Source of the DNA: Armatimonadota bacterium
GTDB lineage: Bacteria > Armatimonadota > UBA5829 > DSUL01
Direction of reading: 5' to 3'
Length of the DNA stretch: 64,000 nt
Assembly: GCA_039811685.1 (NCBI GenBank)
Contig: JBDHZC010000006.1
Location: 1-64,000 of the forward strand
The notes under the pieces were generated by a model that ran no database searches, had not been told where the DNA came from, and saw nothing but the letters and a program-made list of their open reading frames with translations. How positions within the stretch are numbered: the stretch's first letter is position 1; each line of letters starts with the position of its first letter. This document shows positions 14,309 through 31,200 of the stretch, piece by piece. The translations under genes were made by a program, and so were the position numbers.

Positions 14309-16045
14309 CTACGGTGAAATCACGCCGACTCCACCACTGGTCTGTCGCTCTTCCACTACGGTAGGTGTGATAAAGATCAGCGTTTCTGTATCCTGATTCA
14401 GATTGAACCGGCTGCGGAACAGCCCGCCGATAAGAGGCAGATCGCCGAGGATCGGCACGCGACTACCGCCGCTGGTGTCATTCTTCTGAATGAAGCCGCC
14501 TACGACGATCGTTTCTCCGTTAGCGACGCGACGCGCGGTTGACAGTGTCTGCTGGTTAATAATCGGCGCCTGCTCACCGTTAGGACCGGTAACAAAACCC
14601 GCTGTATTCTGTACCTGCGGCTGCATAATCAGCGTAATCGAATTGTCGCCGTTGATTTGCGGCAGAATGTTGAGCTGTGTGCTGGCATCAATGTAGGTGA
14701 CCTGCGAGGAGGTGACTGGCGGCCCAGTATTCCCCACGGTTGTCACAGACTGGTAGAAAGGAATCTGACGTCCGACACTCAGTGTCGCTGCGGTATTGTT
14801 GAGCGTAGAGATGATCGGCGCGTTGACAATCTTGCCGGTATCGGTAGTCAACTCAGCGCGCAGGTTAGCCGTAAGGTTTCCGGATTGCACGTAGCCAATG
14901 ACGTTCCCGCTCGGCCGGAAATCGGTCTGCAGGAGATAGTTCGGGCGGCTGAGCAGCCAGTCCAGCCCAAGCCTTCGCGACTCTGACGTGCTGACCTCGA
15001 CAAACTCCGCCTTGATCATAACTTGCTTCGGCGGCAAATCCACCAGCGTGATGAGGTCTTTGAGCTCCTGAATCGCGTCGTCTTCCCCTTTTACGAGAAG
15101 CGCATTCTCCTGATCAAGAGGAATAATCGCGTCAATTCCGTCCGGCCGAAGATTGTCTGTGCCAGTACCTGTGGTAGTCGTGCCCGTTCCAGGCTGAGCG
15201 GGTGAAGTCGTTGTCCCGGGTCGCGTAGTAGTAGTGGAGCCACGGTTGAACGGCGGCCTCACAACCTGGTTCGCAGTCTGAGCGGGGTCAGCGGCTCTGT
15301 TCGCGACTTGCGAGTTTACACTGTCTGTTGTCGGCGCAGCCGGCGGCACAGGGCTGGCATTGATGTAAATCGGCTGCTGTTGCGGTTGATCCACGATGCG
15401 AACCGGATCGTTACCGGGGTTGATGATGTCAACTTTGGGCCCCCACTTGCCGCGGAAGACATCCAGGCTGCCACCAGCCCAAGGGGTAGCGCGCGCAGTC
15501 GGATCAGTCGCTTCACCGGCCGGTAGAGCGCCAATTGAGATCATCGCCATCTTGGAGTTGATGTTGTGGAGGACAATTTTCTCGAAGTGCTTACGCGGCT
15601 TTGGCTCAGGCGCAACAACCAGAGGCTGAGGCTCTGGCTGCAGGACGGGCGAAGTATCAAATGTCGGCGCGGTGGGTTCGCTGACCTGATCTGGTACGTC
15701 GGCTCCAACGATGTAAGTACCATCCGCAAGCCTTGCCAGCTTGACACCCGCAGTGAGAGTCACCGTCCTGAGGATACTGTCCAGTGGCTTATCTTTCAGG
15801 GTAACGCTGACGGGCGTTGACATCTGATCGTTTGTGGGGAAAGCAATCCCGATGCCACTCTCCTTCATAAGGAGTTGCAGGACGTCCTTCAGAGGAGCCG
15901 CCGAGACATCCAGCGTCAGCAGCGGTCCGGCATCTGTCCCAGCGCTTGGCTGTGCCGCGCTGACAGCGCTGCTGGGCGACAAGCTCAGCAGACCGGGCAC
16001 ACCCAAAGCCAATGCACAGATCGTTACGATACAGGCACGACGCAA
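14309..16045 (-). CDS. pilQ: Secretin (PilQ/GspD family)
   Basis: Signal peptide, N0/STN-like domain, N3 (ENALLVKG...LVDLPPKQVMIKAEFVEV), secretin core (GETIVVGG, VPILGDLPLIGGLFR, TLIFITPTVV). Confidence 0.9.
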   Translation of the reverse strand: MRRACIVTICALALGVPGLLSLSPSSAVSAAQPSAGTDAGPLLTLDVSAAPLKDVLQLLMKESGIGIAFPTNDQMSTPVSVTLKDKPLDSILRTVTLTAGVKLARLADGTYIVGADVPDQVSEPTAPTFDTSPVLQPEPQPLVVAPEPKPRKHFEKIVLHNINSKMAMISIGALPAGEATDPTARATPWAGGSLDVFRGKWGPKVDIINPGNDPVRIVDQPQQQPIYINASPVPPAAPTTDSVNSQVANRAADPAQTANQVVRPPFNRGSTTTTRPGTTTSPAQPGTGTTTTGTGTDNLRPDGIDAIIPLDQENALLVKGEDDAIQELKDLITLVDLPPKQVMIKAEFVEVSTSESRRLGLDWLLSRPNYLLQTDFRPSGNVIGYVQSGNLTANLRAELTTDTGKIVNAPIISTLNNTAATLSVGRQIPFYQSVTTVGNTGPPVTSSQVTYIDASTQLNILPQINGDNSITLIMQPQVQNTAGFVTGPNGEQAPIINQQTLSTARRVANGETIVVGGFIQKNDTSGGSRVPILGDLPLIGGLFRSRFNLNQDTETLIFITPTVVEERQTSGGVGVISP

Positions 16046-16393
16046 ATAACCAACCTCCTCACGAAAGAAGCGCCTTCAGCCAACAACTAAGGCGCGGCGC
16101 GCACACCTCTTAACACTCTCTGGGTGAGACGCACATCAGAATTGCGACTCTCAATGCCAGACAAGCGCCAAGCCTTAACGGGAAACGATGAGACTTCGAG
16201 TCTCACCCGCCCGTTCCGCAGGCTTCTTGGCCAATGGATGGCCTGAAACCTCTCCAGGTCCTTTACTGACACAAGGGCTCTTGACCCCGAAGCGCGTTGC
16301 GGCCATTGCGCACGAGTCCAGGCGCAAGCTTTGCAGTACTACCGCGCACGCTCGAGTCTCAGGCGATGGAGTACGCAAAAGAGATGACCTTCC

Positions 16394-17167
16394 TTAGAAA
16401 CCGCCATAGCGTCCACCAAGACCACCGCCACCAAAGCTACCGCCACCAAAGCCGCCCCGATTGAAACCACCTCCAAAGCTGCTCCCGCCGAAGCTGCTTC
16501 CGCCGTAGCCACCGAAGCTGCTGCCACCAAAACCACCGCCAAAGCCGCCCATCCCGCCGCCAAAGCCACCCATGCCACCATAGCCGCCACTCATACCGCC
16601 ATAGCCGCCACCCATGCCACCATAGCCACCCATGCCACCTCCACCGAGAGTGAACTGGTTCGCGCGGCTAATAACAGCCGTAGCCCCGAAAAGCTGACCG
16701 ATGTCGGCCGCGGTCGCGAAATTCAAAGAGATCTTCTGAACACGCTTCTCCGGTTCGACCGTCTCCTGGGCTGGCTCTTCAGTGGTTGGAGTTTGAGCAA
16801 GCTGTGACTGGTCCGGCGTTGGCTTGACCTGAATCTCATAGAGATTGTTGTCAGAGCGGCGGAATGTCAACTGCGGGCTGTTTGCCCGCAGGATCGCTCT
16901 CAAAGCCTGCTCGAACGGCACATCGCGCAAAGAGACTGTGACGCTGCCATCCACGTCACTGGCGACAGTGTTGTTGAACGGCACGAATTTGAACAGGGCC
17001 TGCACGGCGGCGCGGATCGGAGCGTTCACAAGTTCAAGCGTGATGGGCTTGTTGCGCAGCTCGCCTGCGGCGGCGTCAGCAGAACCCTGGGCGCTTACTG
17101 GCGCACTGGTAGCGACCATGGAGATCGCGACTGCTATGCAGACACCTAATGTAATTCTTCTAAGCAT
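16394..17167 (-). CDS. Stand-alone secretin N-terminal (N0/STN + partial N1) protein with Gly/Tyr/Phe-rich low-complexity tail
   Basis: Signal peptide; ITLELVNAPIRAAVQALF...VTVSLRDVPFEQALRAILR; ~80-aa GGYGG/GGFGG tail; AGGAG before ATG 17167. Confidence 0.75.
   Translation of the reverse strand: MLRRITLGVCIAVAISMVATSAPVSAQGSADAAAGELRNKPITLELVNAPIRAAVQALFKFVPFNNTVASDVDGSVTVSLRDVPFEQALRAILRANSPQLTFRRSDNNLYEIQVKPTPDQSQLAQTPTTEEPAQETVEPEKRVQKISLNFATAADIGQLFGATAVISRANQFTLGGGGMGGYGGMGGGYGGMSGGYGGMGGFGGGMGGFGGGFGGSSFGGYGGSSFGGSSFGGGFNRGGFGGGSFGGGGLGGRYGGF
16397..16645 (-). repeat. Coding low-complexity repeat (GG[YFM]GG)n
   Basis: Imperfect tandem units such as GCCACCCATGCCACCATAGCC on the + strand. 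Confidence 0.85.
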
Positions 17168-17312
17168 CGAAAAGACTCCTTTCGGGTCCCAGACTTCTTG
17201 AGTCACATACTCTCTCATCTATGTCTTACCAGACCCAGATGTCTAATTAACAGCTCTGCGTTGGCCAAGCGGCAGAGGTTCATACGGGGACAACTTGGAA
17301 GTGAGTCACCGC

Positions 17313-17341
17313 TTAGACGATGACGCACGTCTCACTGTTCC
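17313..17341 (-). promoter_or_regulatory. Putative ECF-sigma promoter GGAAC-N17-CGTCTAA
   Basis: Minus strand GGAAC agtgagacgtgcgtcat CGTCTAA; same architecture as 32676-32704. Confidence 0.5.
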
Positions 17342-17352
17342 CCAAACCAGGG

Positions 17353-18150
17353 CTAAGGCGCCGGCACCTCTGGCCCCCGTCCGCGAATGCCCCGCGGCGC
17401 AGGAGGCATGGGTACCGGCCCACCACGCCCCGGCCTCGGAGCCGGAGCGGTAGCCGCTGGATTGCGCGGCTGCGGCTGCCCGGCGGATTTTGGCACTTCC
17501 ACGTACTGGGGTGTCCTTGTCCTAGTAGAGCGCAGGATCACCCGATCCGGCAGAATCCGGTCCACAACCAGATTCTCATCAAGCTGCTGGCCCGGCGCCA
17601 CGATCTCTGATCGCCGACCCTCTGTTTCTATGATCGCAAAAACTCGATCATTCTTCAACAATCCGGCCATTCTTCTTTGCGGCTGAGGCGGCAGGGTGTC
17701 TTCGATCTCTGTTTGTCCAACCACGACTGGCTTGAGCTTGCGGATATCAGGAGGCTGAAATCGGGACGCAAAAGCCACCTTTGCCCTCTTTGGCTTCTGT
17801 CCAAACACCGGCCGAAATGGGTCTGGACGGTACATCTCCAGTGGTGGTTCAGCCTTCTCAGTGCCCGCTGCGGATGCAGTCTGCACAGGCTGCGCGCCTG
17901 TCTGAGCCTCAGGGCTGCCGCCCGGCGCAGGCGACGCGCCAGGAGCGGGTGTCGCCATCGGTGGCTGTCCCGGAATCTCGCCCGGCGCGCCCGGTGTCAC
18001 TGGAGGCGCCTGCACTTCCTCTCCGCCGCCACCGCCGCCAGAGAAAACAAAAAAGTAGAGGACGCCGACAAGCACCAGGATCCCGACAAAGCCACCCAGG
18101 ATAATCGGCATATTCTTCTTGTCGTTAAGCCACGCTTGCAGCGATTCCAT
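17353..18150 (-). CDS. PilP/GspC-like protein, anchored by an N-terminal TM helix
   Basis: Follows the pilO-like gene; RPDPFRP motif and HR-like domain (FAIIE...VAPGQQL...VDRILPDRVIL); no lipobox. Confidence 0.65.
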   Translation of the reverse strand: MESLQAWLNDKKNMPIILGGFVGILVLVGVLYFFVFSGGGGGGEEVQAPPVTPGAPGEIPGQPPMATPAPGASPAPGGSPEAQTGAQPVQTASAAGTEKAEPPLEMYRPDPFRPVFGQKPKRAKVAFASRFQPPDIRKLKPVVVGQTEIEDTLPPQPQRRMAGLLKNDRVFAIIETEGRRSEIVAPGQQLDENLVVDRILPDRVILRSTRTRTPQYVEVPKSAGQPQPRNPAATAPAPRPGRGGPVPMPPAPRGIRGRGPEVPAP

Positions 18151-18215: not shown

Positions 18216-18998
18216 CTAAGGCGCGGGAGGCACCGGCGCGCCCGGTTGCGCCATCTGCGGAGCCGGTGGAGTCATAACCGGCGCAGGCTGAGCGCCCATT
18301 GGACTCGCGGGTGGCGGCATCGGCGCACCGCCCGCCATTCCGGCCTGTTGATCCTGAGCGCCAGCCGCTGGCGCCATAGCAACCTGCGCGCCAGCAGTGC
18401 CCCTCGGAAACCACAGAACTGTGAGATCGTATGACCCGGTCAGATTGGGACTGACTCCCGAGAGAGTGACCGGGCCGACCTGCACCAGCCTGCCGAAACG
18501 GTTCCACCCTTCTATACTGCGCATGATGTCGTAAAAGTCCCCCTGCACCGAGATGGACCCGATATGTATCTTCATCAACCCATCCTGCAGGTTGTTAGGG
18601 TTGGTCGTTGCCGCCGGAATACTGACAGTTGATCCCATTTCAACGCCGAAACGCCGGGGCCAGTTCTCCAGCATGGGGCCAAGCACTTCGGCATGTTCTC
18701 GCCACAATGCAATCATGCCCTGCGTCCGATCCGCAAAAGAGATCTCAGGCATCTTGCTGAGTTCGTATTTGCGGTAGTCAAGCTGTGCCTGCAGTCTGTC
18801 CCGCTCGGCCTGCTCAAGTTCCCGCTGGCGCAGCGGAAGCTCCGCGGCTTTGGCCACCACCTCTTGACGCTGTTTGTCAACCTGCGTAAATTTCTCCATC
18901 CGGGGCCGCACCAGCAGGAAAAACATCCCCACCCCGATGATGAGCGAGAGCACCACACCAACGATGATGACCTGTAATTTTGTGAGCTTATCTAGCAT
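18216..18998 (-). CDS. pilO: PilO-like pilus alignment protein
   Basis: N-terminal TM, coiled coil, SVQGDFYDIMRSIEGWNRFGRLVQV resembling the PilO core; operon position. Confidence 0.7.
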   Translation of the reverse strand: MLDKLTKLQVIIVGVVLSLIIGVGMFFLLVRPRMEKFTQVDKQRQEVVAKAAELPLRQRELEQAERDRLQAQLDYRKYELSKMPEISFADRTQGMIALWREHAEVLGPMLENWPRRFGVEMGSTVSIPAATTNPNNLQDGLMKIHIGSISVQGDFYDIMRSIEGWNRFGRLVQVGPVTLSGVSPNLTGSYDLTVLWFPRGTAGAQVAMAPAAGAQDQQAGMAGGAPMPPPASPMGAQPAPVMTPPAPQMAQPGAPVPPAP

Positions 18999-19018: not shown

Positions 19019-19762
19019 CTAAGGGGCCGGAGGCTCTGCTCCAGGAACAGGCCCTGCCCCCGCCACGGGAGGCGGTGGTGCGCCTGCGCCCGGAATCCCA
19101 CCCGGAGCGCCAGCCTCCCCTGCCTGAGTTGCGCCACCGGGGCCAGCGTACGCGGGAGGCGTGATCGGCTTGTTCAGAACAAGAGTCGCACTAAACGAAA
19201 ACCCCAGCCTCGTCCCCTGCAGGAAGCTGTTGCCCGCCTCATTACCTCCGCCGCCTTCACTGCCGGTACGATAGCCGGGAACACCAGTGAATGAAGAGAC
19301 ATTTTTGAACAGATTGGTCGCCCGGTACAGACCCAACAGGTATCGACCTGCGTCAACGATACTCGGCGCCCAACCCTGAATTGTGATGGAAGCTCCGTCC
19401 GAAGCTGGTGTCACCGAGAAATACTCAATGTTGCGATAGGTGTACTTCGTAAGCCCCTGCAGCACTGGCAGGTACTGCGTGTTGTACTTCATCACCGCGT
19501 TGATGTAGTCCACCTTCTGCTTGGTGGGCTCAATCTCCTGACGCACCTGCTGTGCCTGCTGCTCAAGCTGGGTGGCTTTATCCGCATTGGCCTGGTTCTG
19601 GGCAATCTCTTCGTTCGCCTGGTTGATCTTCCCTTGAACCTGCATCATGAGACCCAGCATCGCCACTACGATCACCAGCAGCAATACACCAAAAAGCGTC
19701 ATCAGCTTTCTGACCGCCTGACGCTCGAAATAGTAGCGGGGAATCAGGTTAATTGTGAGCAT
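19019..19762 (-). CDS. pilN: PilN-like pilus alignment protein
   Basis: N-terminal INLIP (INLLP PilM-binding motif), TM, coiled coil, ITIQGWA; follows pilM. Confidence 0.8.
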   Translation of the reverse strand: MLTINLIPRYYFERQAVRKLMTLFGVLLLVIVVAMLGLMMQVQGKINQANEEIAQNQANADKATQLEQQAQQVRQEIEPTKQKVDYINAVMKYNTQYLPVLQGLTKYTYRNIEYFSVTPASDGASITIQGWAPSIVDAGRYLLGLYRATNLFKNVSSFTGVPGYRTGSEGGGGNEAGNSFLQGTRLGFSFSATLVLNKPITPPAYAGPGGATQAGEAGAPGGIPGAGAPPPPVAGAGPVPGAEPPAP

Positions 19763-21366
19763 CAGCCCTCACCCACATAATCACGCAATGCCAGACCAAC
19801 ACTGGTGGAAAAAACCGGCGCAATTTCAGCAAGCGCTTCCGGCGTGGTGCGCTTTGCTTCCAGAGCCAGATTGCCAACAGGATCGCCAACCTGAACCGGC
19901 AACCCGAGAGCGCTTTCGAGATAGGCGGCCAACCCTGGAATCTTCGCCGCACCTCCACAAATAACGAGCACATCAGCCGGCTGCGGATTGCGCGCATTGT
20001 AGTAATCCAGGGAGCGGCTGATTTCCGTCGCAAGCTCAACGACGACGGGCGCAATAGCCTGAGCAATCTGCGACTGCGTAGAATCTGAGTGTGGTGAGGG
20101 CTCCAGGCTCGTTGGAGGAGGTGCAGCGGAGGCGTCCGCTTCAGAGGGCAGATCCGGAGTTGGCGAGCCGGCAAAAGCATCGTCCAGATCAAAGACCGGC
20201 CCGCTCGAGCGCATATCCGTGTCGCCCAGATCGAAGACATCTCCCGTTGGTTCTGAAGACGACGGGGAATCCGGATTATCCCCAAGGTCGAACGCGCCGC
20301 CAGATGATCCAGTTGACCCCGACGGCTCTTCGCCCAGATCAAATCCGCCTGCCGGAGCAAACGGGCTATCAGAAAGACCTGTGTCATCCTGGGCGGGCTG
20401 CTCTCCGAAGATAGGTGAGGCCTCAACAAACTCATCATCTCCAAGATCAAAGCCGCTCACCGGCGGAGCAGGACCCGACTCGGACGCACCTGAGTCGACT
20501 CTATGAGGGTCGGAGAAGGGGGTCGAATACGTCGGCCCGAGATCGTAGTGAGTTTCCGCCGGCTCCACTTCCGCTGCAGCCGCGCCTCCAGCCTGAGCAA
20601 CCAGGTCCATGTCCACCAACGCCTGCTCGCGCAAGAGACGCTCAGCCTCGCCCTCCTCTACCCCGAGCGCCTGTTCAACTGCCCTGATGAGGTTAATCGT
20701 AGCAATAGGGACAGTACGCGGGAAGACGAGCAGCTTCTGCTCGTAGATGCCGAACTTAGTACTCTCACTGCCAATATCCGCCACGGCCACTGTCCCGTGC
20801 GCTTCAATGTCCGGATGTCCGTTGATGAGTGAGCGTGGCACGGCCACTGGCTCAACTTCTATGGCAGCGGGAGTGAGTTTGGCACTGGTAAGTGTATCAA
20901 GATGCTTGCGAATGACGTCCTCCTGACAAACAGCCAGAAGAACCTCCATATTCTGAGCGCCCGGCACAGCGGATGGCCTCTCCAGAGTCTTGAAGTCCAT
21001 TACGATCTCGCTGGAGGGAAACGGAATGTGGCGCTCAACTTCCCATTTCATAGTCTCCGCAAGCTCCTGCGGAGTCATTTTGGGCACTTCGATTACGCGC
21101 ACGACGACGGCGGACTGTCCGGAAACGCTGCTTACAACTTTTTTTGCCGAGATGCCGCTGTTGGCAAAAAGACGCTTCACAGCTTCGGCGACAGCGGAAG
21201 GATCGAGGATGGCCTCTTCGACAATCGCGCCCTGGGGCGTTGGCTCGTAACCAATGCCGGTGACCACCGCGCCCCCTTTACCGGGACGCAGCTCCACCGC
21301 CTTTATCCAGCGCGATCCAATATCCAGGCCCACAACCGGGCCAGAGGCCTTTGTTTTCTTAGCCAA
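19762..21366 (-). CDS. pilM: Type IV pilus assembly protein PilM with a large acidic insertion
   Basis: VGLDIGSRWIKAVEL, EVERHIPF, ADIGS, EISRSLDYY, CGGAAKIPGL, SVGLALR; TTG start. Confidence 0.93.
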   Translation of the reverse strand: MAKKTKASGPVVGLDIGSRWIKAVELRPGKGGAVVTGIGYEPTPQGAIVEEAILDPSAVAEAVKRLFANSGISAKKVVSSVSGQSAVVVRVIEVPKMTPQELAETMKWEVERHIPFPSSEIVMDFKTLERPSAVPGAQNMEVLLAVCQEDVIRKHLDTLTSAKLTPAAIEVEPVAVPRSLINGHPDIEAHGTVAVADIGSESTKFGIYEQKLLVFPRTVPIATINLIRAVEQALGVEEGEAERLLREQALVDMDLVAQAGGAAAAEVEPAETHYDLGPTYSTPFSDPHRVDSGASESGPAPPVSGFDLGDDEFVEASPIFGEQPAQDDTGLSDSPFAPAGGFDLGEEPSGSTGSSGGAFDLGDNPDSPSSSEPTGDVFDLGDTDMRSSGPVFDLDDAFAGSPTPDLPSEADASAAPPPTSLEPSPHSDSTQSQIAQAIAPVVVELATEISRSLDYYNARNPQPADVLVICGGAAKIPGLAAYLESALGLPVQVGDPVGNLALEAKRTTPEALAEIAPVFSTSVGLALRDYVGEG

Positions 21367-21603: not shown

Positions 21604-24600
21604 TTACGGCTTTGAGACGCGAGTCACACTTCTAAGCGGTGGACTGATCGTCTGGTAGAAGATATCCGAGCTTCCGGCTCTGGAGGACGTCCAGAACAGC
21701 CATATCAGCGACGGTTTGTAGCGTGGATCTTCGGGCGATCTGAGTCCGTCCGGATCGGCAAAGGCATAAATCTGCCCCTCATTCACCATCGTATCCACCG
21801 GAACGACCGTCCCTTGATCCGGCGCCTCAGATTGCTCTGGAATCCATGTCAAAGCTTTGAAGCGGGGACCACTGAACCCCTCCGGCTCCCGGTACACCTG
21901 TCCGTCACGTCCCTGATACTCCACCCAGATCGGACGATTCTCCGCGTCTTCCGTAAAGAGCAACCGGTTGTTGGCCCAGTCAAACTGGAACGGCCCATTG
22001 TAGATGCCGCTCGGGCCTTCATGCACCTGCAGCGAAACGGGCATGCCATCGGACTGCAGTGCTATTGAACGCTTGAGTTGCAGGCCCAGGCGCAGCGTCT
22101 TGTAGTAAAGAGTGTTCGCATGCACAGCGCCCGCACCCTCTCGCCAGAACAGCCACATTCGGTCAATAGCCATCGGCTGATCGTAATCAGGCGGCAGAAT
22201 GCTCGGGTCTCGCCGGTTCTTGGACTGCGTGAACTGCTGCGTCTTCTCGATGAAACTGTACGGCGAGGTGTCCGGCTGAGTCGTGGCTGTCAGACGCCAG
22301 GTCTGGGGCGTATAATCGACCAGAACCTTGTCCTTGCCGCTCAGTAACTTCTCAAACTTCACGGTCCCCGCAGAGGTATCTACGATAATCCGGCCAAACA
22401 GAGGGCCAAGAACCGGATCTTTTGTCGTATCGTAGAGAACAACGCCCACCTGTGAATCTAGCTGAGCGGGCGCCGAGTTGACCCACATCGGCGTGTACTT
22501 ACCGTTTGATGAGTTCCACTTCAGAACGTGAATAATCGGATACTGGTAGTCAGGGACGTCGTCAGACGCCGGCGGCGCCATACCATTGGTGGGACGCACC
22601 CAGGCCAGGTGCCGACTGTAGAACAGAGACACCGCGCTTGTATCCCGCTGCAGCTCTTCGTCGTAGACTCGCGACAGCCGCTGGATATCCAGCATTTTGT
22701 TGTTGTCGTTGGCGCTCGGGCGATATCGTGTCAACAGCAAATCCGGGTTGCCGGAAGTCCTGGTAATGCCGCTGTAAACTACGTCAATGTGTGCGGTGGG
22801 CGTATCTCCGGTGCTGAAGGCATAAGGTGGCATAATGCGCAACATCGGAACAGGCTCGGCCGCCGTAACGAGCGTACGGGGGATCACAAGCGCTTTGTCG
22901 TCACCCCAGGCCGACGGACTTCCAGCGTTGCGATTGAAGTTGTAGTACAGTTTGTAGCGCCCACCAACCCCGGCGTGCCAGAACACATAAAGCTGAGTTG
23001 TTCCATTGTCCTGAACTGGCACAATGCGCGGTGAAGCCTTGGGAGTCGTGGCATCCTGCGACGGTATGCTCTGGATATTCTGCATCTGGCCATTGCCACC
23101 GATTCGCGCATAGAAGATGCGATACTCTGTTGCGCGAACTCCGTTGTTCAGCTTGTCCGCCTGACCGGTAAACGTAACCCACGTTTCCCCGGTCGTCTGA
23201 TCCTGTCCGACGCTTGGGCTGGTGAACTTGACAGATGTGTCAATGACATTGCCGGGCAGCCCGTCTGCGAAAAGAGCAGCAGCTTGACCGGGGTCGGGGA
23301 TAGCATCCGCCGGGTCAGCCATCGTCCACCACTGGTTAGCCGGAGCGCTTCCACCGTATACATAGCTGCCAAGCGGCCCTGCGCTCGGATCAAACTTCAG
23401 CACAGACTGGTACAGGAACCAGGGCTGTGACGTGCTGGCGTTCGGGTTAGTCCCCTGGCGATTGCTGGTCCATATTACTCCCAGGTCTCCAGTCTGGACA
23501 GTACCGCCGGAACGCGACCACTGCCGGAAGGCCGTTGGCTGCGCATCGCCCCAGCGGGGCGCCCCTGAGGGGGGACTATCCACATTCGGCAGCGAACCCA
23601 CGGTGGGATCGTCTGTCATTTTCCCTTCGCGCGCCGTAATCTTGACCTGGAAGGACGGAGAGGCTACAGGTTCAGCCGGACGGCCCGTACGATCCAGATC
23701 CAAAATACCGTTGTTATTCAGATCAGAGAACACCGGCACGACCTGAGCGTACGTGCCTGACGGAGTGCCGATTGGCAGGGAAACACTCACCAGTGGGAGC
23801 GGCGGCAGATCGCTGCTACCCGTCATGTACTGCTGCTGCCGGCGGTCGGGGACGGTAAAGGTCGTGGGACCCAGGTCACCCACACGAGGCTTTGTGATGA
23901 CGTGACCGAGACCGTTGGGCAAGGCCCACGCCGGCGGCCCGCCAACCCCCAGCGGATCAAACGCGGGGTCAAGCGATGAAATCAGATTGCCTCCGGACAA
24001 ACCAAAGCCGACATCCGGAACACCATCACTGTTGAGATCGATGGCCTGAACCTGATCGCTGAACAGATAGATGCCTTTGGCAAGACGCACGTTTAGTTCG
24101 TTGACGTTGCCATCATTGCGGATCGTGAACGGTTTGAACAGATCCGTCGCTGGCACACCAGGTTGGAAATAAGCGCCGGAGAACGGAAGCATACCCTCCA
24201 ACGGGTTGAGGTTCACAGGACCAATCCCAAAGCCAATCGGACGCTTTCCAAGGTCTACAACAGTCTGCTCCGCGTACATGTTGAAGTCCGGCGCAACATC
24301 CATGATGTAGTTAAAATCACGGTAGGCTTCCGACCCATTCAGCGGCCGTCCATGCAGGCGCTGATCGGCCAGATCCAGAACGCCGTTGCGCGTTCCCCCT
24401 TCCGTAGCGTCAATCCAGACGTTGACACGGTCTCCGTAGGGAGAGCCCGGCCGGTTGGCAGGCTGATAGCGTGGCACGTCCACGGTGAGGAGCAGCGGAT
24501 CAGGCGTGGCCGTTCGGGTTTCGCCCGAGACAGTAGCCGGCGCGGCAGCGGGCAGCAGGTGAGCGTTTCCGCGCGTCGGATCGGCGCCCTCGATTTTCTT

Positions 24601-27600
24601 GACAATGTTGAACGCAGTGCTGGGAATATCAGGATAATCAGGGCTGATATTTACGGTATCAGCGGGTGGTATGATCTCCCACGGAAGAGGATTGATCGGC
24701 GCGCTGATCCAGCGCAACACTCCGCGGTCGGCCCGCAGCGTGTTGATAATTCCCGTTGGATTGTTCCGTCGCGTGATTCCTAATACGCTGCGGTCAGCAA
24801 GTGCCACAGTGACTGGAACTGTGTTGCCACCGTGTTTGGCCGGAGTCTTGTCCGCCGGCATGACAGTAGCCCGGTTCATGACGCCGTTGTAAGTGGTCCC
24901 TGCATCCGTGCGCGTCGGCTGGAAAGGCGCACCCGGCAAGCCCGTCCACGCTTCCTGGTGGGACAATCCGTCCACAGTGGTGCGCGGATCAAAGGCGATA
25001 GCCATCGGGTGATTGATGATGAACTTCTTCGGCTCAGCCTGGTTGCGCTTGCTGTCGAAGCTCGAGATAGTCGCGCTCTCTGGTACGGACGCCTGCACAA
25101 ATCCTATGTAGGGAACCGTGTTCTTGGTGGGAGTAAGGCTGCCCTTGATGACATAGGCGTCCCCGGGTGTCAGCAGCTTGGTCGGATCGAGCGTCCAGGC
25201 GAACTTCGCATAGTAGAACCGCCCGGTGTAGCTCTGGCCGTCAATGTTCAAAGTGATGTCGTGATCCGGCCAGGAGAGATTGGCTGACTGAGACGCCGTC
25301 AGCAGAGAGCCCGCCTGCTCCCCCTGCCCCTGGTTCTGCATCTGGAAGGTGACGTTGGCGCCCTGGTTCAGGAATGACCAGGCCAGAATGTAAAGAGTGT
25401 CCCCCCACTCCAGACGCCCGCTGTCCCACGGGCTGTTCGGCCGGCGGTTGACGCTGGTGGACTCCTTATCGAGTCCGAGACTGCTGAAGTAGGCTGCGGG
25501 GTCGTTATACTGCTGAGAAGAGACAATCTCAAGGTCGAAGAAAGGCGAGCCGCCTGTAAAGCGCTCGTGCTGATGCGCGCCCGGCGCGTCTCCGATGTAC
25601 GGGTTGCCAACCGGCCACGACCCCTCTCCGCTGCCTCCGCCGTTTTCTGTGAAAGCGTAAAGGCGGCCGTCATCGCCTCCGACATAAATCCAGTTGACCG
25701 CAACTCCTCTGGCTATGGCCGGTGAACTAAAGACGTTGCTGGCCAACGTACTCCAACCCCAGCGGCTCGGGTAGTTGGAGCGGTCTGAAGTAATCTTGTC
25801 CAGTGTAAGGCCCTGAAAGAGGCTGGTCTGTGTACCAAAGTATGCCACGCCCGGCTGGGCGCCGTTTGCGGGCGCAGCAGCCACCGACGAGTAGATTGGA
25901 CCGCCCATCTCGACCTTACCGATATCGCCGCTGCCATCCACAGGTATTTCGTGAATGTAGCCGTCAGCTGATCCGGCAATCAGATAATCCTTGGCAGGGT
26001 TTCCGGCCTTGACAAGCGACGGGCTCCCATATCGGAATGATCCGACGACGACGGGCAACGGCGGCGTGCCGGTAGTTGGAAAATCTTCTGGATAGACCCA
26101 CTCTACAGATCCGTCGTTCTTGGACGCTTTGAAAACATGCCCGCTGGAAGTCGCAAAGAAAACGCTGTCACTGGAGACCACGGGCGCGGCAGTGATGGAG
26201 CCGATGTCGGGCAATGGAGCAGCATTTGCGCCGGACTTTTGCAGCGTAAAAGTGTCCACTCGAGTTGGGAAGGTTGAGTTGATGCCGGTGAGCTTTCCGT
26301 AGTTGCCTGTCGTCGTTCCGTAAAACAGCGATGACCCGTCAATCGCCGGCACGTTTGTCATGCCACCGACACCGAGTTCGTCAAACTCACCTGTAGCCTG
26401 GCGCGTACGCGGCCAAATCCAGGCCGTATCCGTGGAGAACGGCGCTTTCCCGGAACCTTGAGTCTCGAGCGCAATAATCCGTCCGCTCGGGTTGGCCGAA
26501 ATAATGCGATTGCCTGCCAGGGTCGCTGAGCAGTACCCGAAGCCGTCCACATTTTCCGGAACAACTCGAATAGCGTCAGCCACAACGTGAAGGTCTCCAC
26601 CGCGGCACCCTGTTGGTCCGGCAGTGGTTTCATTCGTGAGCGTGACCGTCAAATCGCCGCCGTCCGCAAACTGAACAGCGCCCACGCGTACCCATCGCGG
26701 TCCGATTGAGAGCCCTGATCCTCCAGTAGCGCAACTGCCCTGATTGACCTGCACCTTTGTAGTCGTGCCGCCTGACTCAATGCTGTAGTGAGCGTCGGGA
26801 GCCCACTCCACTCCCGCAGGCTGTGAGGGAATCCAGGCATACACCTGGTAATAGTAAGGCTTGAGCTCTGAAAACCTGTACTGCACTTTTGCGCTGCCGC
26901 TGGCGCTGGCTGGAGCATGCAGATAGCCCTGACCAAAAAAGTCCCGGCCGACCGGCGTCTCAGGCGTAAACGCGCCACTCTTGGACGCCTGTGTATCGTC
27001 CTGAGTCTGCCCCGGGCCACTCCAGATAAGCCGCCCGGTCAGGGCGTTGAGCGCATAGATCTGGCCGTCATCCGCGCCCACATATACAGTGGGAGTGCCC
27101 GTGTCAACAACCAGAGGAGACGAGAAAATCGCGCCCGCTATGGGGCCTTCTGCAGGGTCTCGGCCTGCGTCGCGAGGATAAGACCACAGTGGCTCATCGA
27201 GCCTATCGGTAGCGCTGGTCGGCAGGCGCGGCCCGGAAATTGCGTCTACAGCGATGATTTTGGACCAGGATATATCCCCGGCATCAGGGTCAGACTGGCC
27301 GGCAACCGATCGATTATAAGGGTCGCTATACGTGACACCAAACACGACAGCTTTCGTAGCGCCGTCAGGGAGCCCGCTTGCCGCGTAAACTGCGGGCGAG
27401 CTGTAAATCCGGCCTCTGTCGCGCACAACGCGGATGGCATCCGCTTTTACAAAACGGCCCTTGTCCGTGTAGCGCAGCTCTCCACCGCCAGAGCCTCCGG
27501 GCGGAGTTGTGGGGTCCGGCGGCCCACCAATGGTCTCATTTGCATCCGACCAGGCACTGACACTCACAGTGCTGGAGCTGCTGAGCAGATACGATCCGGG

Positions 27601-28191
27601 CAACGGTAGCCACTGCCCGCCGTTCACCTGGCTGATGGTTACTTTGTGGCTGCCACCGCCCGCATCAATAATCGTGTAGGTAGCATGATCGGTGTTGGCG
27701 ACATCCACCGTTCCGTTGACAACATCTGTAGAAGAAGGCACAAAAACTTCCACAGAATAAGTTCCGGTAGCCAGACCTGTGAGAGTCCATGTCGCTACGA
27801 GAGCCTGAGCCGCCGTGCCGTTTTCGGGTGTCCATACTGGAGTGAGCCAGTAGTGCTGCTTGTAGGCGTTTGGCGCAGCCTGGGTACCAAGAGACGCAGA
27901 GTCAATCCAGCCGGGCGCGGCGAAAACGCCTGCATCTTCATCGTCATAAATCCCCGGAACAGCGTCTGTCACGGTACTGGAGTCTGGCTCCGGCCAGGGG
28001 AATGTCCAGGCCGGTGAGACCGAATCGCTCAGGCCAGGATTGTACGTCGCGGCTGTCGCGGCGGAGTTCTGAGGGTCTTTGTGGTGCTTCAGCCAGTCTC
28101 CGGTCTGTGAAGCCACTGGAAGAGCCGACGCCAAAGCGAGCGACAGCGTAACCGCAGCCGCGATCCCGCATCTGCTGATCTTTTCTTTCAC
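21604..28191 (-). CDS. Giant (~2195 aa) secreted PQQ/BamB-type beta-propeller protein, candidate PilY1-like adhesin
   Basis: Signal peptide (...LPVASQ); repeats SSP...VYVGADDGQIYALNA; two golvesin/CBM-like beta-sandwiches; Ca-type loops DLNSDG and DLNNNG; C-terminal WTSSRAGSSDIFY. GTG 28191 follows the upstream stop. Confidence 0.75.
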   Translation of the reverse strand: MKEKISRCGIAAAVTLSLALASALPVASQTGDWLKHHKDPQNSAATAATYNPGLSDSVSPAWTFPWPEPDSSTVTDAVPGIYDDEDAGVFAAPGWIDSASLGTQAAPNAYKQHYWLTPVWTPENGTAAQALVATWTLTGLATGTYSVEVFVPSSTDVVNGTVDVANTDHATYTIIDAGGGSHKVTISQVNGGQWLPLPGSYLLSSSSTVSVSAWSDANETIGGPPDPTTPPGGSGGGELRYTDKGRFVKADAIRVVRDRGRIYSSPAVYAASGLPDGATKAVVFGVTYSDPYNRSVAGQSDPDAGDISWSKIIAVDAISGPRLPTSATDRLDEPLWSYPRDAGRDPAEGPIAGAIFSSPLVVDTGTPTVYVGADDGQIYALNALTGRLIWSGPGQTQDDTQASKSGAFTPETPVGRDFFGQGYLHAPASASGSAKVQYRFSELKPYYYQVYAWIPSQPAGVEWAPDAHYSIESGGTTTKVQVNQGSCATGGSGLSIGPRWVRVGAVQFADGGDLTVTLTNETTAGPTGCRGGDLHVVADAIRVVPENVDGFGYCSATLAGNRIISANPSGRIIALETQGSGKAPFSTDTAWIWPRTRQATGEFDELGVGGMTNVPAIDGSSLFYGTTTGNYGKLTGINSTFPTRVDTFTLQKSGANAAPLPDIGSITAAPVVSSDSVFFATSSGHVFKASKNDGSVEWVYPEDFPTTGTPPLPVVVGSFRYGSPSLVKAGNPAKDYLIAGSADGYIHEIPVDGSGDIGKVEMGGPIYSSVAAAPANGAQPGVAYFGTQTSLFQGLTLDKITSDRSNYPSRWGWSTLASNVFSSPAIARGVAVNWIYVGGDDGRLYAFTENGGGSGEGSWPVGNPYIGDAPGAHQHERFTGGSPFFDLEIVSSQQYNDPAAYFSSLGLDKESTSVNRRPNSPWDSGRLEWGDTLYILAWSFLNQGANVTFQMQNQGQGEQAGSLLTASQSANLSWPDHDITLNIDGQSYTGRFYYAKFAWTLDPTKLLTPGDAYVIKGSLTPTKNTVPYIGFVQASVPESATISSFDSKRNQAEPKKFIINHPMAIAFDPRTTVDGLSHQEAWTGLPGAPFQPTRTDAGTTYNGVMNRATVMPADKTPAKHGGNTVPVTVALADRSVLGITRRNNPTGIINTLRADRGVLRWISAPINPLPWEIIPPADTVNISPDYPDIPSTAFNIVKKIEGADPTRGNAHLLPAAAPATVSGETRTATPDPLLLTVDVPRYQPANRPGSPYGDRVNVWIDATEGGTRNGVLDLADQRLHGRPLNGSEAYRDFNYIMDVAPDFNMYAEQTVVDLGKRPIGFGIGPVNLNPLEGMLPFSGAYFQPGVPATDLFKPFTIRNDGNVNELNVRLAKGIYLFSDQVQAIDLNSDGVPDVGFGLSGGNLISSLDPAFDPLGVGGPPAWALPNGLGHVITKPRVGDLGPTTFTVPDRRQQQYMTGSSDLPPLPLVSVSLPIGTPSGTYAQVVPVFSDLNNNGILDLDRTGRPAEPVASPSFQVKITAREGKMTDDPTVGSLPNVDSPPSGAPRWGDAQPTAFRQWSRSGGTVQTGDLGVIWTSNRQGTNPNASTSQPWFLYQSVLKFDPSAGPLGSYVYGGSAPANQWWTMADPADAIPDPGQAAALFADGLPGNVIDTSVKFTSPSVGQDQTTGETWVTFTGQADKLNNGVRATEYRIFYARIGGNGQMQNIQSIPSQDATTPKASPRIVPVQDNGTTQLYVFWHAGVGGRYKLYYNFNRNAGSPSAWGDDKALVIPRTLVTAAEPVPMLRIMPPYAFSTGDTPTAHIDVVYSGITRTSGNPDLLLTRYRPSANDNNKMLDIQRLSRVYDEELQRDTSAVSLFYSRHLAWVRPTNGMAPPASDDVPDYQYPIIHVLKWNSSNGKYTPMWVNSAPAQLDSQVGVVLYDTTKDPVLGPLFGRIIVDTSAGTVKFEKLLSGKDKVLVDYTPQTWRLTATTQPDTSPYSFIEKTQQFTQSKNRRDPSILPPDYDQPMAIDRMWLFWREGAGAVHANTLYYKTLRLGLQLKRSIALQSDGMPVSLQVHEGPSGIYNGPFQFDWANNRLLFTEDAENRPIWVEYQGRDGQVYREPEGFSGPRFKALTWIPEQSEAPDQGTVVPVDTMVNEGQIYAFADPDGLRSPEDPRYKPSLIWLFWTSSRAGSSDIFYQTISPPLRSVTRVSKP

Positions 28192-28204
28192 CGTCTTCGA
28201 TTTC

Positions 28205-31200
28205 CTATCTGCGGTCAGCAAACGTTGGCTGCTCAAGGATATAACTCCCTTCGATAACCTGCTGTGGCTGCCCGAACGCATCTGGCTTCACCGCCGGCGC
28301 CGACCACACAATCGGCGCCGGAACCTGAGGTTGACCACTGGCGTCCAGCCTCTGAACTTCGAAAACTTCTCCGTGGAAATCGTTACCACTCGCGCCAAGT
28401 CCGGTATATTCATTGGAGATCAGGCAGTTACCATTGGGCAGGACTTTGGCAGAGGACGCGAGCAGCGGGACTCCACGAACTGTCCGGTAGGCTTCTCCGG
28501 GGTAGCTCCACAGCACTGGCGCAATGCCGTTGGCCGCGGCGCTTGTGTCCAGCTCCCACACACCGGCGCGATCACAGATGATGTCTCTGGAGCCATTGCG
28601 GGAGAAGGTTCTCTCGAAGAAACGCGGGTTCACGAGTTTGCGCTGCGCCCCATTGTCATTGATGGCGCGGATTTCTCCGATGATCTTGCCGGGCTGATGG
28701 TAAGTCCACTTAACCGATCCAGCTGGCCCGCTCACCTGCCCGTAATCCAGCTCTACAATCGCGCCGCCTTCTCCCTGCGCCGGAGCTGGATCCGTTACAC
28801 CCGTATTAGGGTCGTACTGGGCGTTTGTCGTATAGTTGGAGACAAGCGCCAGCACGTCCATGTTCCCCTGGTTATCCCGTGGAAATACCTGGGCGGACTC
28901 ATACATCAGTTTGCGCCCGTAACTGCCGGATGCGCTGACCCAGTTCAGGATGACCGGAGGGTCCTGATCTGGAGTCAATGCCGGCGTACCCGGTGACGGC
29001 AGCGGATTGCCGTTAGCGTCGTAGCGCACGACCAGATCCAGTATCCGGTAGTTGTTCCGATCGGCTACCAGATAGTGATACACGTAGGCCATAGGAGGAT
29101 TGATCTCAAGGGCCGGATCCGGCTCGACTCCCTGCCACATCCTCACGTCAACCGGGCCATTCAGCGACTTTGGGGCACCGCTGGGAAGCAGATTGCGCGG
29201 GTCTTCAAAATCTCGAATTCGCAACAGAGTCTGCCCGGCGCGGTCGCACTGGACAATCCGGTTGTTACCGGTATCGCAAATCAGCAGGTTGTTCTGATCA
29301 GTGAACCGAGCTACTGACGGACGGGCAAAGGGCGTCTTCTTGACAGAGAGGCCTGTCGGAGCGGTCACAAAGTCCATCCCATGCGTCTTCTGGTCGTAGG
29401 TTCCGTCTATGCTCCATACGATCTTGGCGCCAGCGTCCACTTCCAGAATCCGGTTGTTATCCACAATCAGCGTCCCGGGAGAGTCGAAGACCGCAATACC
29501 GGTGTCGCTGACTGCCGCCAGCAGCCCACCCGCTCCAGCCAAGGGCCGTACGAGCCCACTGCGGCTAACAGCCTCCTGCCAGACGACATCTGTTGAGGCC
29601 TGGCCGCCAGGGTTCAGACCTGTAGAGCCCGCGCACTCCCACTGCCGATGGTAGTTAGTGTCCACCCCGAAGACCTGTTTCCCTCGGGAAGGCGTCGCAT
29701 TGGTCTTGACAGCATAGATGTGTCCGCTGGCTGTTCCAAAATAGACATACTCTCCCAGCACAGTTGGAGGAGAGACTGCCCGGGAGGCATCCCGGCTGCC
29801 CGGACCAAGGGTGCAGTTGGCCACCGGCGGCACTTCGGGCATGTAGGCGACATAGTACCACTTGAGGTTACTGAAAGCCGTCGAATCCGCCGAAACCTCC
29901 ACGTCTCCGACAAAAACGTGCACGGGCAGGCCGGCCAGAAGCGGCCGGTTGTTGATCAGAAGAGCGTTGCTCGGCGGGTCAAAATTGTCGATAGTGATGA
30001 CTCGACGCCCGTAGTCAATGTTGTTGCCATAGACTCGCGCCGCTTCCTGAATGGGCAGTGGTTGAGCCCCGCCGGACGTCCCGTACGGGTTTGGCTGCCA
30101 CACACGCACCGGCAATGGACGTCCGTCAGTGTCGTACAGGTTCACATCGGGCGCTATTTTGATCTGGAATTTGTGGCTGCGCTCAAAAGCCAGAAGTACA
30201 ACAGCGGACCCGCCGTCCGACGTGGCAGCAGTCGCAGTCACGTAAACAGCGTCATTCGTCACAGCCGGTGGGCCAACAGCCTGGAAACTGGCCAGCGCTA
30301 TACCGGAGCCGTTATTTGTCGTATCCAGCGTGTAGTCGAACGCCGGGAAATAGGTGATGCCTGACAGAGTGTCATCCACTTTGTCCAGATAGGTGCTCCA
30401 GTTGAGAGACACTGCCGGATACGCGGCTTCCCCAGCAAGCTGGTTGAAGCGTGGCCCACTCTCCGCCAGGGCATAAACCATTGAGGCGTTGCCCCTCGTG
30501 CCAACCATATACAGGATTCCGTCCGGTCCCATCGCTACGGTGTTGTTGGTCTCCCAGGTCGGGTACGTGATGCCAGATGCAGCCGCCGCGGTGGGCTCAG
30601 GCTTCGGGCTATAGAAGGTCCGCGGACGGAAGTTCTGCGCGCCGCGAGGCGCGCCGCTCGGGATCTCGCTGTCGTCACGGGCGATGCGGTAGTCCGCAAA
30701 GACCGGAGTCACGGCGGTCATCCACGCCGGCAGACCCGTAAGATCAAGCTGCCACTGTCCGGGCGCAGGAGTGGCAGTCGAAAGGTGAGACGTGAGATCG
30801 AGACAGTTGGTGGCGTCCAGGGCCCACAGCTTCCACTGTGGCGCTCCACCGGGCTGAGCTACGTTCCACGCATTGCTGTAACGTGTAGCCACCACGCTCG
30901 CGCCAAGCCGCTTGAGCGGTTCGTTGCGAACAGACATCAAAGCGGCCAAAAGCCGGTCGTTGGGGGTAACGCCCGTAAGCCCCACGGTCTGAGTGTCCCA
31001 GTAAGCGACCAGATCCAGGGCGTTAGAACCGGCGTCCCGCACCCACCCTACGGTTGGCGCGACCGGGCGCGCGCCGAGTCCGAAGTTCGCTCCTGCGACA
31101 TCCGGTTGCGCCCACTGCTGCCCGATTGAAACGTCGTAACAATACAGCGTGCCAGCGGCCAGACTTCCGGTTCCGGTGGAAGTGCCAACAGCATAGACGA

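Follow-up and report, generated by a model that had tools for sequence, protein, structure and literature searches.

The stretch of DNA analysed here, hereafter the window, comprises 64,000 nucleotides of an Armatimonadota bacterium (assembly GCA_039811685.1, contig JBDHZC010000006.1, positions 1 to 64,000 of the forward strand) and contains, at 16394..17167 on the minus strand, a gene of 257 codons plus stop that encodes a free-standing paralogue of the PilQ N-terminus with a low-complexity tail. The gene belongs to a minus-strand cluster in which PilM, PilN-like, PilO-like and PilP-like proteins are followed by the protein carrying the N0 domain and the tail, a spacer of 348 bp, the secretin, and aroC, aroK and aroB. 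A signal peptide, an N0/STN-like domain, the start of an N1-like domain, a Gly/Tyr/Phe tail and a clean stop had been listed in a preliminary description of the window, and all of these were found in the 257-amino acid (aa) open reading frame (ORF), which extends from the ATG at 17165-17167 to the stop codon at 16394-16396 of the minus strand. The ORF list also allows a longer frame from an upstream ATG at 17218; however, the start at 17167 was preferred because a Shine-Dalgarno-like AAAGGAG, read from the sequence at 17176..17182 (minus strand), lies 8 nt 5' of this ATG, and because the alignment of homologues begins at the Met of 17167 and not at the upstream ATG. This motif bears out the earlier claim that the gene has its own ribosome-binding site, and the Pfam scan, which gave STN alone and no secretin barrel domain (PF00263) in the 257-aa protein, agrees with the claim that the barrel is lacking. 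The gene had further been placed immediately upstream of the secretin; the secretin is indeed the next gene downstream, but the 348-bp gap makes this wording slightly generous.

The first 26 residues (17090..17167, minus strand) read as a type I signal peptide with a putative cleavage site after V-S-A. AlphaFold2 (AF2) placed a helix at residues 2-20 within it, and a hydrophobic leader was present at the N-terminus of all 30 aligned homologues. Read from the sequence, the leader of the 257-aa protein contains no lipobox, and a lipoprotein pilotin reading of the protein was therefore rejected. Pfam matched neither TPR nor LysM in the protein, the features by which pilotins of the PilF/PilW/TadD type and TsaP would be recognised.

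The leader is followed by a PilQ-type N0 (STN) domain at approximately residues 39-115 (16823..17053, minus strand), on which Pfam, profile matches to PDB entries, AF2, Foldseek and TIGR02515 agree. Pfam STN (PF07660) scored 29.4 bits and thereby passed its gathering cut-off of 28.4, and AF2 modelled residues 40-115 with a predicted local distance difference test score (pLDDT) above 90. A profile of the folded part, built from the N-terminal 128 positions of 30 family members, matched the N0 structure of N. meningitidis PilQ (4ar0) at E 9e-17 and residues 154-273 of V. cholerae PilQ (6w6m) at E 3e-16, the latter match covering N0 and the first strand and helix of N1; the same elements were aligned in P. 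aeruginosa PilQ (6ve2, residues 290-406). Foldseek, which the preliminary description had proposed for the folded part, ranked PilQ N0 domains in the first three places and also listed the N0 domain of GspD, DotD and BfpG (9u5s chain R), while entries 4av2 and 3oss were among the structure matches of the N0 module. In addition, residues 39-162 aligned to positions 1-118 of the 428 positions of the NCBIfam model TIGR02515, with 58 bits against a cut-off of 284. A variable linker rich in Pro, Thr, Glu and Gln (residues 116-140, 16748..16822, minus strand), defined by the alignment and modelled with a pLDDT of 53-59, leads to residues 141-162 (16682..16747, minus strand), which the alignment and the profile match to 6w6m identify as the first strand and helix of N1. 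This piece contains an invariant K145 and an AF2 helix at residues 153-159 (pLDDT approximately 70), and it is an orphan: by alignment, profile and AF2 the second half of N1 is absent from the 257-aa protein, and the tail follows in its place.

The tail (residues 165-257, 16397..16675, minus strand) is rich in Gly, Phe, Tyr, Met and Ser, ends in R-Y-G-G-F, and was modelled as disordered by AF2, with a pLDDT of 31-40. Depending on the rule used for its start it is 91-93 aa long, with 55% Gly and evenly spaced Phe, Tyr and Met; the 91 residues counted include 51 Gly, 11 Phe, 9 Ser, 5 Met, 5 Tyr, 3 Arg and 2 Asn. The DNA encoding it consists of imperfect tandem repeats with a period of 9-24. We surveyed the tails of 84 single-N0 members, pooled from the loci (30) and from the searches (54) and including some near-duplicates. 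Their median length was 84 aa (range 37-108), and the median composition was 0.46 Gly, 0.17 aromatics, 0.21 Ser/Thr/Asn/Gln and 0.03 Lys/Arg, with Asp/Glu and Pro close to zero; the Gly fraction was at least 0.30 in 67 tails. The terminal residue was aromatic in 71 of the 84 (Trp in 43, Phe in 16 and Tyr in 12), 38 tails ended in R-x-[WFY], and an Arg within the last four residues was combined with an aromatic end in 58. Hydrophobic residues recur every 3-5 positions, and the variance of their spacing was below that of all 2000 shuffles in 18 of 28 tails, which is partly expected from the repeat origin. In eight close pairs the ratio of nonsynonymous to synonymous substitution rates (dN/dS) was 0.05-0.31 for the tail and 0.03-0.26 for the folded part, values to be read with the caveat that repeats are hard to align and that dS was saturated in some pairs. 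These ratios indicate that the tail is under purifying selection and is not junk, and the comparison of members likewise indicates that its sequence is free to vary and that its chemistry is not universal.

Similar tails were seen on other proteins. Three other ORFs of the same genome, encoding unrelated proteins, have Gly-rich C-terminal tails that end in Trp (...GSW, ...NRW and ...GSW; genome G000, contigs C1:634643-635089 (-), C1:150998-151327 (-) and C4:309460-311181 (+)). In genus g11 and in one f7 genome (L052 3306-4433 (-), L053 3380-4474 (-) and L045 9169-10215 (-)), a long repeat tail of the Gly/Met/Tyr or Gly/Phe kind is found at the C-terminus of the PilP-like protein itself, so that periplasmic parts of the pilus machine share low-complexity tails.

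The secretin next door (578 aa, 14309..16045, minus strand; PF00263, E 7e-40) has a diverged N0 of its own, a split N1 and a barrel, and its leader, read from the sequence, has no lipobox. Its own N0, linker and strand-helix are followed by a disordered insertion of approximately 115 residues, after which come the second half of N1 and the barrel. AF2 modelled the first strand-helix with a pLDDT of 76-83 and the second half of N1 with 81-87, and N1 therefore appears to be complete in cis. The insertion (approximately residues 182-297) holds positions that are invariant or nearly so over 21 relatives, e.g., R250 and Q260. When the profile of the free module was aligned to that of the secretin N-terminus with hhalign, the probability was 99.4% and E 5e-21 over 125 collinear columns with 21% identity, spanning N0, linker and strand-helix. 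In a maximum-likelihood tree, the 30 free and 21 secretin modules were split by a single branch with a support of 100/100, and paralogues encoded away from the operon nested within the free clade. Tree and alignment together indicate that the free module is an old paralogue of the N-terminus of the neighbouring secretin, and they fit a single ancient event in which pilQ was partly duplicated before the four families sampled split from one another. Against solved PilQ N0 domains, the profile of the free N0 scored E 9e-17 and that of the secretin's own N0 E 2.9e-10, the free N0 being the closer of the two, and the best TIGR02515 stretch of the secretin lies at positions 253-428. We also considered that the half N1 might complement the secretin in trans, an idea that was set aside since the secretin has its own first strand-helix.

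The family is widely conserved. A clear free-standing match was found in 27 of 30 related genomes (E <= 4.5e-17; open frames of 200-340 aa); of the remaining three, one is 69% complete and two, both of genus g11, gave no match in the first search. No family match among the 30 related genomes was fused to a barrel, and the possibility raised beforehand that orthologues might be full-length secretins was thus not borne out, the relatives being free-standing throughout. In a sample of the whole phylum, a single-protein query found a match at E <= 1e-10 in 116 of 201 genomes (109 of the 181 of high quality) and none in several families, while PilM was present in 200 of the 201. We then inspected eight operons from genomes with no match or with one above E 1e-10 (three of f7, two of f18, one of f5 and two of g11; L049 of G069, which is short and at a contig end, was left out), and a divergent member was present in all eight. 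In f7, two members matched the family profile at approximately 1e-8 and the third matched only the secretin of the window, at 3.5e-7. In one f18 operon the N0 protein (L048 1248-2225 (-), 325 aa) seems to run into the second half of N1 and ends in Trp, and by its sequence it may be a less truncated form. Conservation of the gene pair, which the preliminary description had suggested examining, was evident in 21 of 32 family loci, where the secretin lies directly downstream; pilP, pilO, pilN and pilM are upstream wherever the flank reaches them.

A search for related loci with an alignment of seven sequences returned nine, of which six were from Armatimonadota/Armatimonadetes, one from Fimbriimonadaceae, one from an uncultured bacterium and one, a weak match to N0 only, from Elusimicrobia. 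Among 1.84 billion cluster representatives, a library that carries no taxonomy, the profile had 151 matches at E <= 1e-30, and the best 150 of these included many single-N0 proteins of 190-295 aa with a similar tail as well as proteins and secretins with two to eight N0 domains in tandem. Eight proteins of 449-695 aa (P0007, P0013, P0066, P0072, P0098, P0142, P0120 and P0073) have, besides two to five tandem N0 domains, one more domain rich in beta structure and a short Gly/Tyr tail whose last residues are RGW, RSW, RTW, RRW or QRF, and three secretins (P0055, P0108 and P0134) have four to seven N0 domains. A word-based homologue search found five proteins including the query. A viral link, raised by an Atlas cluster labelled mostly Viruses, was rejected, as none of 42 pattern matches in viral contigs encodes a relative. 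The same sequence occurs in independent DNA and RNA sequencing runs, and the organism was found in sludge and biofilm samples.

Upstream of the gene, the PilP-like protein (265 aa, 17353..18150, minus strand) has a transmembrane helix, a conserved D-P-F motif and, at approximately residues 150-228, an HR/T2SSC-like domain supported by a weak T2SSC/HR match. The PilO-like protein (18216..18998, minus strand), for which no Pfam match exceeded the cut-off, and the PilN-like protein (19019..19762, minus strand) were assigned from position and conserved synteny. PilM (19762..21366, minus strand; PF11104, E 1e-50) contains an acidic low-complexity insertion of approximately 200 aa (residues ~250-450) with five F-D-L-G/D motifs at residues 306, 342, 359, 378 and 392; the PilM proteins of eight relatives have one to six similar FD[LIVF][GDES] motifs in the same insertion, which may be a cytoplasmic array of short motifs. 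Directly upstream of pilM lies an ORF of 2225 aa with an N-terminal hydrophobic leader (21604-28281, minus strand). The spacer between the N0-plus-tail gene and the secretin (16046-16393, 348 bp) had no Rfam match and no promoter-like site, terminator-like sites in it were at chance level, and it is poorly conserved among the four closest relatives. The same genome has a further pilus or secretion cluster on another contig (L002, G000:C9 ~110935-118486), which encodes PilM (PF11104, E 3.8e-52) and an ORF of approximately 1017-1066 aa that resembles a secretin and has an N0 domain, and which contains no N0-plus-tail gene.

The closest known counterpart of the folded part is PilQ of type IVa pili, with which it shares N0 and the first strand-helix (4ar0, 4av2, 6w6m, 6ve2 and 3jc8; E 9e-17 to 6e-12), collinearity with the first 118 positions of TIGR02515 and the pilMNOP-Q-aro context. 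Unlike PilQ, the 257-aa protein stops inside N1 and has neither the second half of that domain nor a barrel; it is encoded by a separate gene beside a complete secretin, and a terminal low-complexity tail of approximately 85-90 residues replaces the loop that follows the N1 helix. The preliminary description held that no such subunit is part of canonical type IV pilus or type II secretion systems, a statement that needs qualifying in view of BfpG/TcpQ and SlkA/SlkB. BfpG is described as a free-standing N0-like partner of a type IVb secretin that binds BfpB in a 17:17 ratio and forms a hoop around the N3 ring, with TcpQ as its homologue (PMC12531336). The protein studied here resembles BfpG and TcpQ in being a small Sec-exported N0-type protein that accompanies a secretin, and Foldseek matched it to 9u5s chain R with a target TM-score of 0.70, but with 9% identity and E 6.4e-3. 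Moreover, BfpG has no sequence likeness to secretin N0 domains according to the same paper (PMC12531336), whereas our protein is a clear PilQ paralogue; BfpG also lacks the half N1 and the disordered tail. The BfpG/TcpQ systems are type IVb with a lipoprotein secretin, in contrast to the pilMNOPQ-type, type IVa-like operon of the window, and the BfpG binding site, given as the lipoprotein LG segment of BfpB (PMC12531336), has no evident counterpart here. SlkA and SlkB, reported in 2026, are described as periplasmic plug proteins in the lumen of P. aeruginosa PilQ; their homologues are stated to occur mostly in Gammaproteobacteria and to be encoded outside the pil operon, and the authors speculate that bacteria lacking them have other types of plug (PMC13392014). 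Compared by description, our protein would be a functional analogue of SlkA and SlkB, as a proposed occupant of the periplasmic conduit, if a plug reading is true, but it differs in being encoded within the pil operon of Armatimonadota. Judged by its sequence, the protein is distinct from both BfpG/TcpQ and the Slk proteins, being a true paralogue of the PilQ N-terminus in a type IVa-like operon, cut within N1 and extended by a long low-complexity tail. Our literature search found no paper describing this N0-plus-tail family, the nearest Atlas clusters are labelled 'hypothetical protein', and the family appears to be unnamed in public databases.

The N0 domains of PilQ and GspD bind the HR domain of PilP and GspC and form the lowest periplasmic ring (e.g., entry 3oss). 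An accessory role in the secretin/type IV pilus machine would fit the fixed order pilP-X-pilQ, and the accessory subunit proposed in the preliminary description keeps its footing in so far as the gene is separate, conserved and held in this order; the ring, plug, FG-like sieve, amyloid or condensate put forward there are hypothetical forms of it. We therefore favour, with somewhat better than even confidence, the explanation that the protein is an accessory periplasmic subunit of the type IVa pilus machine of Armatimonadota, which docks by its N0 domain and carries a functional disordered tail. The gene would have originated in an old duplication of the 5' third of pilQ. As a first step, the N0 domain would dock the protein to the alignment subcomplex, as the N0 domains of PilQ and GspD do. 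It would probably bind the PilP-like product of the neighbouring upstream gene through the HR domain of the latter, the N-domain rings of the secretin, or both, and copies may be arranged about the pilus conduit to match the secretin multimer. The orphan strand-helix, which would be unable to fold alone, would then probably join the sheet of a partner. Finally, the uncharged tail of approximately 85 residues would stay disordered and occupy or line the part of the periplasmic conduit that lies below the gate of the secretin, where it would serve as a flexible seal, plug or sleeve; roles of the tail as plug, gasket or tether are hypothetical.

Several observations weigh against this explanation. 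Approximately 11 of the 32 family loci lie away from any pilus gene within the flanks available; these off-operon paralogues (L019, L021, L022 and L012 of genus g9, and L016, L029, L031, L032, L033, L024 and L015) are flanked in g9 by a GH123-like hydrolase and a C39-like peptidase with TPR, with a Wzy_C (O-antigen-ligase-like) protein nearby, and elsewhere adjoin YkuD, M48 or DUF1598 proteins. In the f18 operon L048, the N0 protein is placed after the secretin. The secretin already has an N0 and a whole N1 in cis, so that nothing obliges the machine to have a second N0. The tail is Ser-rich in some lineages, and in genus g11 it is Asn/Ser- or Ser/Arg-rich, lacks aromatics and ends in runs of Ser and Arg; the tail, whose conservation the preliminary description had made decisive, is thus retained in relatives as a low-complexity segment, but its Gly/aromatic chemistry is not found in every member. 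The Gly-rich, Trp-ended tails on unrelated proteins of the same genome imply that a terminal aromatic residue need not be a specific docking signal. Lastly, four metatranscriptome runs from three studies contain contigs with >= 99% identity to the region, among them records for 16517-16811, 16804-17428 and 16658-17263, which is weak support for expression and no proof of transcription, as contigs of RNA libraries can derive from DNA.

FG-nucleoporins and the tails of glycine-rich RNA-binding proteins are cohesive Gly/aromatic low-complexity domains. Likened to these by sequence, the tail of most members, though not of those in g11 and some Ser-rich ones, has uncharged Gly-rich disorder with regularly spaced aromatic or Met residues, and it differs in its periplasmic location, its spacing of 3-5 residues and its drift in composition to Ser, Asn and Arg in some lineages. 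A bolder form of the accessory-subunit explanation, which we consider rather unlikely, is that the tails form a cohesive, self-healing mesh inside or just under the secretin vestibule, as a bacterial counterpart of the FG barrier of the nuclear pore. A dozen or more tails would be suspended from N0 domains arranged in a ring, with similar tails on PilP contributing in some lineages, and would keep a large outer membrane pore tight to small molecules while the pilus still passes, offering a disordered alternative to the folded Slk plugs of Pseudomonas. The Ser/Asn/Arg-rich tails of g11 weaken a strict FG-like reading.

The likeliest of the alternatives, though itself unlikely, is that the protein is a tether or spacer, with N0 low in the periplasm and the tail reaching to the outer membrane or the wall, so that the lower rings are kept in register with the secretin. 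The frequent combination of an Arg within the last four residues with an aromatic end (58 of 84 tails) would suit an anchoring function, as would the occurrence of the same Arg/aromatic-type ending on multi-N0 relatives of other architectures. Pfam detected no AMIN domain in the secretin of the window, and the operon showed no gene for a lipoprotein pilotin. A dedicated segment of BfpB is described as bridging approximately 80 Å from N0 to the outer membrane (PMC12531336), and a coil of approximately 85 residues could by our estimate span a similar distance. On the other hand, the aromatic end is missing in 13 of the 84 tails, the g11 tails end in Ser/Arg runs, Pfam detected no membrane- or wall-binding domain in the protein, and Gly tails ending in Trp are also present on likely cytoplasmic proteins of the same genome.

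Somewhat less probable than a tether is a transient assembly factor or regulator, in which the protein, as a soluble version of the module that binds PilP, would sit on PilP or on the N-rings of the secretin until the inner- and outer-membrane halves dock, acting as a chaperone, decoy or timing device and then leaving the mature machine. The protein is a paralogue of exactly the module that mediates docking of PilQ to PilP in other systems, and SlkA/B are proposed to be displaced on docking (PMC13392014). However, a simple decoy would need neither strict retention throughout the phylum nor a long tail under selection, and no regulatory context was seen, the spacer having no Rfam match and no promoter-like site.

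We regard as quite improbable that the protein is an exported surface or matrix protein that leaves the cell, perhaps via the secretin, and whose Gly/Tyr-rich tail is adhesive or fibre-forming. The paralogues that lie away from pilus genes, beside envelope and polysaccharide enzymes, the sludge and biofilm origin of samples containing the organism, and a composition that recalls structural Gly/Tyr proteins are compatible with such a role, but the conserved PilQ-type N0 with its half N1, and a gene position that is fixed between pilP and pilQ, speak for a machine component in the periplasm, and no known export signal was seen beyond the Sec leader. Finally, the gene could be an artefact, either a secretin gene damaged by truncation, frameshift or misassembly or a random ORF in GGN-rich DNA. 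This is conceivable in that the tail DNA consists of short tandem repeats that could arise by slippage, but it has a negligible probability and is refuted by the cleanly terminated, free-standing orthologues of all lineages inspected, none of the matches in the 30 related genomes being fused to a barrel, by purifying selection on tail and folded part, by the intact adjoining secretin and by the recovery of the same sequence from independent DNA and RNA runs.

Secretins are very wide outer membrane pores, and it is actively studied how cells seal them and keep them in line with the inner-membrane machine. In the Armatimonadota, selection maintains throughout the phylum an additional operon member that joins a secretin-type docking domain to a long disordered tail, and the family shows how a new subunit can arise by partial duplication of a neighbouring gene. 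If the protein is a part of the machine, as the accessory-subunit explanation holds, the core set pilMNOPQ would grow to six genes in Armatimonadota, and nature would provide an example of a type IVa system that receives one of its ring domains in trans; the protein would also be a tractable case in which to test whether low-complexity regions serve as structure or barrier in the bacterial periplasm.

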